Shown piece by piece: positions 1,813-52,649 of a stretch of 64,000 nt of DNA. The position numbers and the translations under genes are program-made. Source of the stretch: Eledone cirrhosa (taxonomy: Eukaryota); NCBI GenBank assembly GCA_964016885.1, contig OZ024742.1:7564001-7628000 (forward strand), given 5' to 3'. Each line of letters opens with the position of its first letter. Within the stretch, counting starts at the first letter, position 1. The notes below the pieces were generated by a model, which saw nothing but the letters and a program-made list of their open reading frames with translations, did no database searches and was not told where the DNA came from.

Positions 1813-1850
1813 TTTTTACCGGTTGCGCATTTCTAAATGCTTTTCAAAAA
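1813..1850 (-). ncRNA. HHR-like motif in the PLE-1 pLTR (variant core UUGAAAA...GCAA); further copies 6534-6571(-), 18660-18697(-), 18770-18807(+)
   Basis: TTGAAAA-GCATT taga AATGC-GCAA-CCGG-TA; U3:A8 pair, palindromic stem III, but GCAA replaces GAAA and stem I is weak. Confidence 0.5.
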
Positions 1851-2749
1851 TAATTTTGAGATAGAGTGTCCGTGCTGTTTGCTCTGATCTGATTAGTTTT
1901 GGGAATTCTACCTGTTTTTATGTTAAAATGTTAAAAAAGTGGCTCCAGCAAAAATTATTGGTCAAAACAATTTTGATTGGTCGGTAGAGGTCATGTGGAT
2001 AAAAAATTGGTTTTGCGCCAAGATTGAGGAATGACTCTTTCACAACAAATATGTGTGTGTGTGTGTGTGTGTGTGTGTGTGTGTGTGTGTGTATATGTGT
2101 GTGTGTGTGTGTGTGTGTAGTAGTAGTAGTAAGGTGTTCGATGCTGCGACAATGGCCAGCAGCGATGTGTGTCAAATGGCTATTAAGATAAGTGTGTGTG
2201 TGTGTGTGTGTGTGTGTGTGTGTGTGTGTGTGTGTGTGTGTGTGTATATATAGCAGAGTCATTCGAAGGTCAAAAGATATTTTTCAGCTTTTGTCTTATA
2301 CGGAGAAGTGCGTGTGTGTGTGTGTCTGTGTATAAGTCTCTTTGTATGTTGATGTACGCGTGTGTATGTGTTTGTGTATATATGTGTGTGTGTGTGTGTG
2401 TGTGTGTGTGTGTGTGTGTGGGTGGACCAGTATTTTTTCCCCCTGGTAAAATGGTGTACATTATTCGATTTTTTCAGTAAAATCGGTTCTCTTAATAGAA
2501 CATCAAAAATCTTAACAATAAAAGGTGTGAAATGATATTCACTATATATATATATATACACACATACACACATTCACTACATATATATATATATATATAT
2601 ACATATATACATACATATATATGCACATATATTTTTTTGTATTGCACCATAGAGCATGTGTGTTTACGTGTGTCATTGTGTTTATATGTGGGTAGAGATG
2701 TGTGCTGATGTAGGTATGTATGTTGACGTGTGTATGTTGTGGGTTCGTC

Positions 2750-4897
2750 TTAGGGAGAAGTGTTTAGACGGGGTCCGTATTTGTTAATGAAGTAAGATTC
2801 CTTGCTGATGCGCTGGGTGTGGGTGGCATTTTCTTTAAATTTGTAGAGGGGAAAGATTCTGAAGTTGGGATGATTTTGGGCGGCACAGGTATCAATGTGT
2901 TCACTCAGTGGTATTTTCCTGTATTCCCGTATTTTAATTTGGGATCTATGGACAGTTATGCGTTGGCGGAGGCTGTTTTTGGTCTGGCCTATGTATTGTT
3001 CTCGACAACCTGAACAAGTTAATACATATATTAGATTTTCCGACGCACATGTGAAATTGTGTTTTACTATAAAACGTTGTCCATCTTTGAAATAGAATTC
3101 CGAACCATCTATTAGGTTGATGCAAATGCCACAGTTGGGTCTATCGCATTTTTTTACTGTGGGTTTCGTTGTTATGGTTGGCAGTACTTTGGCATGTGTT
3201 AAGATGTTTTTCATTGACTTGGATTGTCTTTTGCTCTTTATGATATCGTGTGTTCGTAGAATTCGGTTCATTCTATGGTCCTTTTTCAATACAGGGATGT
3301 TCTGGAGGATGGTGTCAAAGGCCTCATTGTTGAGGGGGTTGTGTGTGGAGATGTATGGAAGAGCTTTTAGTTTGGGTTGATTTACTTTAGGGTGTCTAAG
3401 GTCCTGGGTACTGAGTTTTAGGGCACGTTGGATTCCATTGTCAATTAGTGATGCAGGGTAGTCCCTGCCTATGAGTGTGTCCTTTTGTTCTTGTAGCCGT
3501 AAGTAGCAGATGTTTTTATTGGAGACTATAGTACAGATTCTCTTGGCTAAGTTGTAGGGAATATTAATTTTAACGTGTCTAGGGTGGCAAGAGTTGAAGG
3601 GGAGGTATTGCTTGGAGTCTGTGGGCTTGTAGTATATGTCTGTTTCTATTTTTTTGTTATGGATCTTAATGAGGATGTCGAGGAAGGGGAGTTGTTGATG
3701 GCTGTATTCCATCGTGAAGTTAATATTTGTGTTGAGCCCATTTATAAGGGTGTGAAATTCTTTAAGTTTTTCGATGTTTTTGTGCCAAAGGATGAAGCAG
3801 TCATCTAGATATCGCTTCCAGTTCCTTTCAATGTGTAAGTGGAGGGTGTTTCCAAATTTGTTTAGGACTTTAGTGTAGAGGGTGATTTCCAGGTATCCCA
3901 TGACTAGGTTGGCATAAGTAGGGGCTGTTTTCGTTCCCATAGCGGTCCCAGATTTCTGCCTGTAGGGTTTGTTATTGAAAACGAAGTAATTGTTCTCCAA
4001 GATAAATTTGAGTCCCTCTATCACGAATTCTTTTTTGATGCGTTGTGGGAGTTCATTGTGGAAATTATCCAGCCAGAATTGGATAGCTTCTATTCCTAGG
4101 TTGTGGGGGATGTTGGAGTATAGGTTGACTACATCGAACGTCACTAGTAGGGTTTGTTCAGAAAGTGGCATATTAGGGAGGTGATTGAGCATATCTAGGT
4201 CGTCCCTTATATAGCTTTTGATGTGCTTGAGGAAGGGTTTGAGAAGGGTATCAATGAAGTTGCTAAGACGGTGCGTTTCGCAAGCGGGGCCTGCTATTAT
4301 AGGTCTTAATTTGAGATCATTGGGTGAGGGGACATTGATGACTATGTCTGTGGCTTCCTTGCATGCCTTACTTATTGATTCGCTTTTATGTACTTTAGGG
4401 ATACCGTAGAAAAGGCTGGATTTACTTGTGAAGTCTGTGATGAAGCTGAATTCCTTGTTAGTGAGTCCTTCTTTGTATTGGTTGATTAGAGTTTTTAGGT
4501 TTCTCATAATTTTCTGTTGATTGTAGTGTTCAGCCTTTTCGTAGTATGTTTCGTTTTCCAAAGTGGAGAGCGATAAGTTGATATAGAATTCTGTCTCCAT
4601 TAGGACTACTGTACTCCCTTTATCAGCCTCTTTAATTGTAATGGTTCTGTCGGTTTTTAATCTATTTAATTCTTCCCGTTCTTTCTTGTTGAGGTTTGGC
4701 TTGTGTTTTTGTCTGTGCAAGTGTTGGTAAGGGAAGTTTGTGATGTGTTCACAGAATTCGTCCAGGATTTTATTTCTACCTTTTGAAGGGGTGTAATTGC
4801 TTCTATTTCTGGCTAATGATTCATCCTCATTGTACTGGTCGAATAGTTGTTCACTAAGTCGTAACTTTCTACAGAAGTCTGTGATGTCTTCCTTCAT
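2750..4897 (-). CDS. PLE reverse transcriptase + GIY-YIG endonuclease (frame open upstream to ~5239)
   Basis: ADKG, FYGIPKVHK, LRPII, FDVVNLY, GTAMG, RYLDD, LPFLD, YYKPTD; linker CDRPNCGIC; NLIYVLTCSGCREQYIGQT..R...H; upstream in-frame LLSKGLKFTPTP. Confidence 0.95.
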   Translation of the reverse strand: MKEDITDFCRKLRLSEQLFDQYNEDESLARNRSNYTPSKGRNKILDEFCEHITNFPYQHLHRQKHKPNLNKKEREELNRLKTDRTITIKEADKGSTVVLMETEFYINLSLSTLENETYYEKAEHYNQQKIMRNLKTLINQYKEGLTNKEFSFITDFTSKSSLFYGIPKVHKSESISKACKEATDIVINVPSPNDLKLRPIIAGPACETHRLSNFIDTLLKPFLKHIKSYIRDDLDMLNHLPNMPLSEQTLLVTFDVVNLYSNIPHNLGIEAIQFWLDNFHNELPQRIKKEFVIEGLKFILENNYFVFNNKPYRQKSGTAMGTKTAPTYANLVMGYLEITLYTKVLNKFGNTLHLHIERNWKRYLDDCFILWHKNIEKLKEFHTLINGLNTNINFTMEYSHQQLPFLDILIKIHNKKIETDIYYKPTDSKQYLPFNSCHPRHVKINIPYNLAKRICTIVSNKNICYLRLQEQKDTLIGRDYPASLIDNGIQRALKLSTQDLRHPKVNQPKLKALPYISTHNPLNNEAFDTILQNIPVLKKDHRMNRILRTHDIIKSKRQSKSMKNILTHAKVLPTITTKPTVKKCDRPNCGICINLIDGSEFYFKDGQRFIVKHNFTCASENLIYVLTCSGCREQYIGQTKNSLRQRITVHRSQIKIREYRKIPLSEHIDTCAAQNHPNFRIFPLYKFKENATHTQRISKESYFINKYGPRLNTSP

Positions 4898-5598
4898 TTC
4901 ATAGTAGTTAGGACGTAGTGGGGTCGGTGTGAATTTAAGACCTTTGGAGAGTAAGTTGATAAGGTTGGGTGTTGGTTCTGCACTAGTAAGATTGATAATT
5001 TTTATTACTATCGGTTTCTCCTCCCTGTCTTGTGTTATTTTGTTTGCCTGTATCTGTGTGCTGTGTCTAAAAAATGGTTGGGGTAGAGGGGTTTCTGCTG
5101 ATGTTAAGTGGTCTCCTGTGTTTGTTATATTCTTTGTTGTTGTAAAATGTGGTTCGGGTTGGTGGTTGTAGATTGAATGGGGTGTTCCTGTACTGCGAGT
5201 ATGGGTGTGTGTTTCTATGTGCCATGTTGTATTGTGGTGTTATAAGTGGCCTACGTTGTTGGTTGTATCGTGTGGTGTGGGTTTGTTGTGTATTGTGGAA
5301 GTGAGAGTTGAGAAAATGGTAATTACCTTGCTGTCCCCTTGAAGCGGGGAAGTTGTTGCATCTATCATGGCGGTGGTATCTTTTCCCTATGTTTGACGAT
5401 GAGGAATCCGCGTAGTAGTTGAGTGATTTGGTATGGTGTCTCCTTGAAGGGGGAAAGTTGTAAATGTCATTCTGGGGGAGATGATTTCTTGGGTTTTTGT
5501 TCCTTCTTATGGTAGCGAGGTTGGGAAGTTCATCTTCGGTGTGGTGCTTCCTTCTTCGTTTGTTTGAGGCTTCGGGGTTTGAGAAGTTGTTGTACGGT

Positions 5599-51314: not shown

Positions 51315-52390
51315 GATTTTTTAGTAAGTAAGTTAATTTTATAATTTTCTTATTTTACGTCTCTCATATTATTGTTCTGCAACCCCATGCATTGAACCAC
51401 ATTGTTAATAAGACAAAACCTATATATTTGCTAGCATTGATATGCATCTGTGTGTATATAAATGTTACTAGATATAAATTCCTTATATATATATATATAT
51501 ATATATATATATATATATATATGTATATATATATATATATATATATATATATATATATATATATATATATATATATATATATATATATATGTATATGTGT
51601 GTGTATACATGTATATGTGTGTGTGTGTGTGTGTATCTATTTGTGTTTGCGTATGTATGTGTTTATGTATTTGTATATGTATATTTATGTGTAAGAGTGT
51701 GTGTGTGTATTTATTTTTACGTCTGTATGTGTACGTGCATTTGTGTGTATTGCTTACCACGTGTGTTTGTTCATTTATTTGTTGCCTGTATCGCTGTCAA
51801 CTTTATAATAATCTTTATTTTCTTTTTTATGTCTTTTATTTTTTTATTATTATATATATTTTTTCTTATATTTATTTGCGTGTGTGAATATGTAGAGGTG
51901 TGTGTATATTTTTTTATTTTTGTGCATGCATATGTATGCATGTATATATGTGTGTATGTATGTGTATGTTTGTACGTGTATATGCGTATGATTTTGTGTA
52001 TGTATATGTATGTGTGTATGGCTATGTATGTGTATGCATATATATATATATATTTATTTATATATATATATATGTATATATATGTGTGTGGTTGTATATA
52101 TGTATGTGTATTTATGGATATGTTGATATTTATGTGTGTATGTATGTATGTGTATATGTATGTGTATGTATATATATACACATATATATGTGTATATGTG
52201 TGTGTGTATGTATGTGTGTATGTATCTATATATATATGTGTGTATGTATATAATTGTGTGTGTGTGTATGTGTGTTTGCATGTGTGTTTTTATTTTATTT
52301 TTCCTTTCCTTCTTCCTTCTCCAGCCTCACTTTCATATAGATTGCATTTTTGTTTTTAGAATCCAATATCAAGAAAATACACCAGGATTT

Positions 52391-52450
52391 TTTCATTCTG
52401 ATGATTGAAAGCCAAATTTTTTGCTTTTAAGGATCCATTGGTAAATGGAA
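52391..52450 (+). ncRNA. Decayed HHR (GAAA to GGAT)
   Basis: TTTCATT-CTGATGA-TTGAAAGC...GCTTTTAA-GGAT-CCATTGG-TA-AATGGAA; all three stems retained. Confidence 0.6.
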
Positions 52451-52602
52451 TAATTGCCTTATGTTGTTTATTACATAACTATATATATATATATATATAT
52501 ATATATATATATATATATATATATATATATATATATATATATATATATATATATATATATATATGAAATATAAGAATCAAAGAACTGTTCAAAACATTAT
52601 TG

Positions 52603-52649
52603 TGCTTACAGCTGTTTCCTCCAAACCGAGGTTTGGATTCTTCGGAGCA
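52603..52649 (-). ncRNA. HHR with U4C change
   Basis: TGCT-CCGAAGA-aTCCAAAC ctcg GTTTGGAg-GAAA-CAGCTG-TA-AGCA. Confidence 0.7.

Follow-up and report, generated by a model that had tools for sequence, protein, structure and literature searches.

We analysed a window of 64,000 nucleotides from Eledone cirrhosa (assembly GCA_964016885.1, contig OZ024742.1, positions 7,564,001 to 7,628,000 of the forward strand; coordinates below are those of the window) and found 27 hammerhead ribozyme motifs in it. We think it probable that 17 of them lie in the ends of ten families of Penelope-like elements (PLEs) and 10 in six families of non-coding tandem units, the latter likely copied into (TA)n by PLE enzymes, and that two of the PLE families have a fixed core predicted not to cut. 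An earlier note, made from the sequence alone, had listed 27 motif positions from about 15 families. All of these positions are real, each being the low-coordinate edge of one minimal type I hammerhead layout, one-to-one, and we count 16 families, or 17 if subfamily C2 is separated. The motifs use both strands, 14 on the plus and 13 on the minus strand.

With a strict descriptor (CUGANGA or UUGANAA, GAAA, a perfect palindromic stem III, and stems I and II of at least 3 bp) the window has 11 matches, against a mean of 0.08 (maximum 2) in 60 block-wise dinucleotide shuffles, so the comparison with shuffled sequence that the earlier note had proposed came out clearly above the control. The reversed window sequence gave no matches, and restriction to the canonical core left 8 in the window against 0.017 in the shuffles. 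A looser descriptor is noisier, with 13 window matches against 1.75 per shuffle. Rfam had no match in the window at the gathering threshold and no hammerhead family among the 150 weak matches listed of 211, and a genome search with RF00163 gave 18 matches among 74 scored candidates, none inside the window. One could take the noise of the loosest descriptor and the silence of Rfam to mean that the motifs arose by chance in DNA rich in AT and in palindromes, but the strict count already refutes this, and the motifs have a constant place in the element ends and stems that covary between families; we give the idea practically no credence.

As background we used 39 arbitrary 10-kb stretches (390 kb, at fixed chosen positions, not random draws), which have 11 strict matches against 1.4 in shuffles, or 28 per Mb. 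The window has 172 per Mb, about 6-fold more (binomial p 7e-5, a value affected by the window itself having been selected for high motif density). The very high density claimed earlier stands as a local hotspot of a genome-wide load, not as a special locus. Extrapolation to the genome, a 3.0-Gb assembly, puts the number of strict motifs at about 70,000, a figure of large uncertainty since it comes from only 11 counts. The contrast of 172 with 28 per Mb, together with 6 strict matches in 40 kb of flanks, might suggest a ribozyme cluster kept by the host, for example as a silencing trap locus. We consider this very improbable, given that the window was chosen for density, that one arbitrary 10-kb stretch elsewhere has 3 strict matches, that the strands are used about equally, and that (TA)n content is no higher here than elsewhere. 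Genome searches covered 15 of the 16 families (14 by DNA, E by pattern; G was traced only via loci already retrieved), and all 15 are dispersed. Exact motif counts in the genome are 24,071 for family C, 12,170 for family A (both subfamilies), 2,464 for family B, and 6,025 for the sisters of A (control 158). The window consists almost wholly of retroelements and microsatellites, and is a pile-up of PLE and retrozyme insertions, some of them nested.

The PLE families are listed here with their pseudo-long terminal repeats (pLTRs), reverse transcriptase (RT), endonuclease (EN), and open reading frames (ORFs):

1646..7978, minus strand: family A PLE with a Neptune-type linker; pLTR 6366-7314, N-terminal frame 5599-6402, RT and GIY-YIG frame 2750-5239, pLTR 1646-2527; cores 6568 and 1847 (minus strand, U3-A8 and A13C); inverted truncated 3' copy 7306-7978 (plus strand).
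8051..12550, plus strand: family B PLE; inverted pLTR piece 8051-8497 (minus strand), pLTR 8549-9275, frameshifted RT and EN 9072-11649, pLTR 11828-12550; CAGUUGA (U4A+A6U) cores 8415 (minus strand), 9031 and 12306.
13310..14110 (approximate boundaries), minus strand: family E PLE 3' end, sister to A (59-63% at the amino acid level); core 13541, U3-A8 with canonical GAAA.
18482..18984: family A solo inverted pLTR pair; cores 18694 (minus strand) and 18773 (plus strand).
22249..22568, minus strand: family D, 5'-truncated PLE 3' end with a Hydra-like parent ORF; core 22445.
31240..34460, minus strand: family G PLE, GC-rich; broken RT and EN 32999-34460, 3' pLTR; core 31358 with a weak stem I.
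40040..41100 (approximate upstream boundary), minus strand: family I2 PLE 3' end; core 40164; Hydra-type ORF beside the copy at L270/L428.
42110..44838, plus strand: family I PLE; 5'-truncated Hydra-type ORF to 43813 (CxCX5C linker), 3' pLTR; core 44746.
45218..45742: family D inverted pair; cores 45415 (minus strand) and 45640 (plus strand).
48850..49243 (start is a minimum), plus strand: family D2 PLE 3' end; core 49148, with A15.1 mutated in the window copy; full pLTR-ORF-pLTR copy at L427.
49277..52478, plus strand: family M PLE; EN remnant 49277-49703, which matches a full copy at L426 with 96% identity; decayed core 52398; 3' untranslated region broken up by family L and microsatellites.
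52565..54558, minus strand: family N PLE; EN remnant 53971-54558, 3' pLTR; core 52645 (U4C, fixed in the copies seen).

Nearly whole elements of families A and B lie in the window, each with two pLTRs and a truncated copy in inverted orientation. For G, I, M, and N an endonuclease remnant lies upstream of the motif within the window, and for D, D2, E, and I2 the link comes from ORFs at loci outside it. Among genome copies, the EN C-terminus lies upstream in the same orientation and at a constant spacing in 8/29 copies of A (900-1000 nt), 33/61 of B (600-700 nt), 10/24 of I (1000 nt), and 3/20 of N (1500-1600 nt), and likewise in 2/35 copies of D, 1/6 of G, and 2/10 of E; full pLTR-ORF-pLTR copies were found for M and D2, and an ORF adjoins I2. 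Pfam recognized RVT_1 and GIY-YIG in A and RVT_1 in B, and the other PLE families were identified via tblastn and motifs. The pLTRs, the inverted 5'-truncated copy, the tail, and the microsatellite target that characterize endonuclease-bearing PLEs were all found. I, I2, M, and N have the CxCX5C linker by which PMC8557442 defines the Hydra clade (with a DKT motif in I2), A and G have a CX2-5CxxC (Neptune-type) linker (with DKG in A), and D and D2 are placed near the Hydra clade only by similarity to Hydra-type ORFs. The clade labels are provisional assignments by linker, motif, and ORF similarity, and B is unplaced.

Two of these families show further peculiarities. Inverted pairs of family A have a constant spacing, with 10 pairs 111 bases apart among the 100 matches listed and another pair in the window (18482-18984), pointing to a preferred inversion point at the short palindrome just upstream of the hammerhead. 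The family G region is 58% G+C (32-34 kb) compared with 38% for the window, and its protein and hammerhead presumably resemble those of shark and ray PLEs; horizontal transfer of this family is possible.

The remaining 10 motifs belong to the non-coding families:

14402..15776, plus strand: retrozyme array of family C (unit 593 nt, 2.3 units) with internal (TA)n; cores 14772 and 15365; 3' end fixed at 15773 and abutting (TA)n; a short inverted piece lies immediately upstream.
18990..19680, minus strand: family F non-coding unit of about 468 nt; partial tandem and inverted piece; core 19148.
34506..35783, minus strand: family H non-coding unit of about 1.3 kb, with partial tandems elsewhere; core 34648.
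38544..39285: family C, subfamily C2 inverted pair; cores 38784 (minus strand, one core base deleted) and 38982 (plus strand).
41783..42094, plus strand: family J retrozyme unit of about 319 nt, accompanied by a short inverted piece; core 41973 (U3-A8).
46680..47616, plus strand: family K retrozyme (unit 591 nt, 1.6 units); cores 46868 and 47459 (U3-A8).
50456..51484, plus strand: family L retrozyme unit of about 525 nt, nested in M; core 51238.

The coexistence of autonomous PLEs with non-coding hammerhead elements that the earlier note proposed is thus borne out, with ten families beside six. Its picture of many unrelated non-coding elements is overstated, since 17 of the 27 motifs turn out to be PLE pseudo-LTRs or 5'-truncated PLE ends. 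The non-coding carriers are retrozymes, as it had supposed, with no detectable homology to the ten tested PLE ends except simple repeats; the one strong match, of family J, was its own inverted arm within the compared slice, and the likeness of J to A over the motif is weak (E 0.15). Head-to-tail arrays reach 23 units in C (about 420-590 nt each), 18 units in 10 kb in L, 5 in K, and 3 in J, and partial tandems are found at 6/11 loci of F (466-470 nt) and 3/11 loci of H. The longest ATG frames in the units are 29-116 amino acids (the 116 is a microsatellite), and GC is under 50%. A monomer size of about 150-1000 nt fits C, K, L, J, and F; H, at 1,309 nt, may be an internally deleted PLE. Circular folds of five retrozyme units have z scores of -4.0 to -9.4 against shuffles (that of C was computed with a shortened TA run), while those of 8 PLE ends range from +1.0 to -2.7. 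The (TA)n run of the family C unit (14980-15120 and 15575-15640) varies in length between units and has array-specific interruptions, and since the unit contains the (TA)n target, its arrays can receive further insertions. Outside the window, we noted a tandem hammerhead family with a 310-nt period (L416:2595-3215) and more new families at L012, L041, L046, L091, and L366.

What joins the two kinds of element is the way they end. Every family with enough copies has two fixed end sites, 50-270 nt past the motif on its downstream side, and insertions stop at one or the other, fused to (TA)n, and variable 5' truncation and frequent inversion occur in PLE and retrozyme insertions. The two ends lie 130/170 nt downstream of the hammerhead in A, 225/270 in B, 70/170 in D, 55/150 in I, and 55/220 in N, and among the non-coding families at 90/250 in K, 70/190 in L, and 95/205 in F, with J mostly at 145. 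Family C ends about 365 and 425 nt downstream, 58 nt apart, and in both of its two inverted arrays each arm stops at a different one of the two ends. The genomic ends never fall on the predicted hammerhead cut site. The PLE protein studied in PMC11167929 nicks AT-rich DNA, and reverse transcription starts at two internal RNA sites; an inverted 5'-truncated copy has been described for PLEs (PMC8557442). Because the retrozymes show the two 3' ends, the inversion, and the (TA)n target, we take this shared signature as direct sequence evidence that they are inserted by a PLE-type enzyme.

The core is intact (CUGANGA or U3-A8, GAAA, UH) in 16 of the 27 copies. Another 8 have changes fixed in their family (4 A13C, 3 U4A+A6U, and 1 U4C), and 3 are individually decayed (38784, 49148, and 52398). 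At the family level 13 of 16 have an intact core, and the exceptions are A (A13C), B (U4A+A6U), and N (U4C), whose motifs are hammerhead-derived, not canonical members. That non-canonical cores are fixed in these three PLE families had escaped the earlier note. Five of the six retrozyme families have only intact cores, the exception being due to the window's single decayed copy, one of C2. A stem I, a stem II, and a palindromic stem III permitting dimers are present, with stem I only 2-3 bp in A, B, G, and the E copy. When two copies are co-folded, the stem III palindromes pair between copies for K, L, D, I, N, and A; the lowest-energy folds of C, J, F, and B have no such pairing. Covariation is seen between the stems I of C and C2, among the relatives of J, and among the U3-A8 sister families. 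In family L (51238-51308), where the cut would come after U17, stem II is long and variable and the core and stem III are conserved across subfamilies.

The altered cores of A and B are fixed in abundant families. The family B core is C3 A4 G5 U6 U7 G8 A9 in 28/28 motifs (24 of 30 loci picked by protein), no CUGA occurs among the 2,464 genome copies that match the rest of the motif, and position 6 is U in all 151 copies displayed of these. We set aside an alternative register for B (a 3-nt core deletion with a bulged stem I), as the swap register preserves every other position. The family is young, with all 127 scored RT matches 93-100% identical. Family A, which has U3-A8, has C13 in 6,250 and A13 in 10 of 6,296 copies (12,170 counting both subfamilies), while its sister families, which have different stems II, keep GAAA in 95 of the 100 matches listed (of 6,025). 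Cut sites would be predicted at 1817 in family A and 9060 in family B. A13 is essential for hammerhead activity. U4C, the change in family N, is a known natural variant, as are U3-A8 and A6C. Among single and double mutants of the CUGA region, C3G/G8C was the one exception to a uniformly low activity (PMC9901934), and ribozyme mutants left PLE insertion in vitro unaffected (PMC11167929). The likeliest reading, to which we give fairly good odds, is that A and B would be dead ribozymes in thriving elements, and their fixed cores, predicted to be crippled, beside the intact ones of five of the six retrozyme families suggest that cleavage may be dispensable for PLE jumping.

It is also conceivable, if doubtful, that the variant cores are new working hammerheads, U4A+A6U being a swapped pair and A13C compensating A8, perhaps with help from the PLE protein. 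In crystal structures of minimal hammerheads, position 8 lies opposite position 13. The changes in A and B are in perfect register with the other core bases, stem II and the palindrome are preserved, A13C is common to two subfamilies with thousands of copies each, and U3-A8, U4C, and A6C exist in nature. In DNA contigs of run X2 no alternative letter reaches 3% at the family B core, while two flanking sites vary at 54-57% (runs X1 and X6 barely cover the family B stretch, and organism B may or may not be the same species). On the other hand, young families are homogeneous whatever the selection, 95 of the 100 sister-family matches listed keep GAAA, and the excerpts of PMC9901934 give no rescue inside the CUGA region other than C3G/G8C. 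Nor did we find a second CAGUUGA lineage with a different stem II (21 matches against 29 in the control); one match of that search, at L312, has a canonical core and no clear stem II. Relatives of family B were not found in contigs of other genomes or, searching with P0122, in metagenome contigs. A separate possibility is that the tandem families are satellites, single PLE-end insertions that later grew in place through unequal crossover, RNA circles playing no part. The 2026 preprint proposes that a PLE terminus was amplified locally, and variants uniform within an array (in 9 of 10 family C arrays one diagnostic base does not vary between units) are compatible with local duplication too. We regard it as unlikely, since the arrays are on many chromosomes with the same two stops and inverted multi-unit arms, circular folds of the units are unusually good next to those of PLE ends, and no parent ORF was seen. 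Distances in family C are close, 3.2 within and 3.5 between arrays (73 of 82 units, omitting 9 below 93% identity), so rolling-circle copying, which is likely, is not separated from local duplication by this measure.

In addition to these close distances, several points weigh against PLE-driven copying of both kinds of element or against dead cores in A and B. The PLE link of D and G is based on 2 and 1 ORF-linked copies. A retrozyme parent sought among the ten PLE ends gave no homology beyond simple repeats, and 21 of 57 Xenopus families in the preprint 10.64898/2026.07.22.740005 have pLTR homology compared with none here; the same preprint reports cleavage in just 1 of 9 retrozyme dimers. 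Seven of the ten PLE families have intact cores with covarying stems, and therefore cleavage is apparently under selection in most PLEs here. In A and B, stems II and III are still intact, and C13 is also present in 3 sister-family copies among the 100 matches listed. The mutants of PMC9901934 were made in a type III construct without protein, and the lizard PLE ribozyme requires its protein to cut (PMC11167929). Finally, cleavage, circles, and transcripts in Eledone are predictions here.

A mechanism that would account for PLE-driven copying with dispensable cleavage is as follows. The PLE protein would nick AT-rich DNA and prime at two sites inside the RNA instead of where the ribozyme cuts (PMC11167929). 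Retrozyme arrays would be transcribed as multimers and cut by hammerhead dimers paired via the palindromic stem III, the monomers would be ligated to circles, and reverse transcription round the circle would give tandem insertions (PMC7229834). Retrozymes would then keep intact cores because circle formation needs cleavage, and an autonomous PLE could use uncut RNA, so that lineages A and B may have lost catalysis and kept mobility. We lean, by a small degree, toward viewing the locus as a natural experiment, in which A (about 12,000 copies) and B (about 2,500 copies) have a core that should not cut and the non-coding hitchhikers, with the same two-site PLE priming, have intact ones. Either PLE transposition can do without cleavage in vivo, cleavage serving mainly the parasites that form circles, or the CAGUUGA and U3-A8/C13 cores are undescribed working variants.

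Some other features of the window lie outside these families. A further Hydra-like ORF (DKT, RT, and EN) is present at 35900-38130 on the plus strand; its own 3' end and hammerhead are missing, removed by later insertions. A dispersed repeat with inverted pairs and no hammerhead match (23590-24097, 25917-26144, 28134-28234, 30415-30472, and 38314-38546) may be a ribozyme-less PLE end. Inverted repeats at 44904-45132 and 25568-25811 were assigned to no hammerhead family, and broken copies of LINEs (long interspersed nuclear elements) are found at 29530-30265 and 54878-63997, their nearest named proteins belonging to Argonauta hians (62%) and Acanthosepion pharaonis (45%).

What the hammerhead does in PLEs is stated as an open question in PMC8557442, and until the preprint 10.64898/2026.07.22.740005 there was only a hypothesis on what carries animal retrozymes. 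The Eledone cirrhosa genome bears on both questions with large, young families side by side, including altered-core autonomous families beside intact-core sisters and retrozymes with a PLE insertion signature. If the reading is right, it is a natural test of whether PLEs need their ribozyme. It also predicts abundant circular RNAs of 320-590 nt in a cephalopod, together with an extrapolated load of strict motifs that would escape Rfam. The coexistence of PLEs and retrozymes is in itself ordinary, and this is an unusually large new instance of a known partnership; the parts worth following are the fixed core variants and the insertion signature on the retrozymes.

The earlier note knew of no catalogue of this diversity, and we likewise found none of cephalopod retrozymes or hammerheads in the literature, where the giant squid genome paper gives just 235 Rfam hammerhead hits, but the PLE-retrozyme partnership itself is in print (PMC4209133, PMC7229834, and the 2026 preprint). 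Our literature search turned up no report of U4A, A6U, or A13C hammerhead cores, which the variant list of Lunse et al. 2017, a work reportedly on PLE hammerhead variants, may include. The passages available from PMC6155905 and PMC11014351 contain no U4A+A6U or A13C variants. The PLE hammerheads of PMC4209133 share with ours the short stem I, the palindromic stem III, the U3-A8 covariant, the presence of many families in one genome, and a predominance of single truncated copies and of inverted pairs with a spacing of 100-700 bp. They differ in copy number, 2,000-9,000 against tens of thousands here (likely an order of magnitude more), and family-fixed U4A+A6U and A13C cores, present here, are absent from the main text excerpts of that paper.

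Known retrozymes (PMC7229834 and 10.64898/2026.07.22.740005) are, like those in the window, non-coding tandem units with one type I hammerhead each, a GC content of 29-42%, a compact circular fold, and PLEs in the same genomes. Ours differ from these in their unit length of 320-1,300 nt and in having long palindromic stems III. The molluscs in PMC7229834 are mussels, and the 35 animal genomes covered by the preprint include no mollusc. PMC7229834 describes circular RNAs of coral, mussel, and axolotl retrozymes, and the circular-fold scores here are in line with these. Both sources argue for PLE mobilization from co-occurrence and pLTR similarity, whereas the arrays here carry the PLE insertion signature itself (two 3' ends, inversion, and TA target), which is unreported in the excerpts of either.

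With the Hydra, Neptune, and Nematis PLEs of PMC8557442 our elements share the C-terminal GIY-YIG, partial tandems, inverted 5'-truncated copies, a tail, and the (TA)n target. The supplement of that paper has one Hydra family from Octopus bimaculoides, compared with at least six Hydra-like families in this one window, and tails are 40-170 nt here versus 30-40 nt there. Canonical hammerheads are described there as universal in the three clades, in contrast with the altered cores of A and B. The closest parallel for the insertion signature is Poseidon PAc of Anolis (PMC11167929), in which two internal reverse transcription starts downstream of the hammerhead likewise set the genomic ends and the target is AT-rich. 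For PAc, engineered mutants showed that cleavage is dispensable in vitro, and the natural families in Eledone cirrhosa may show the same in vivo.

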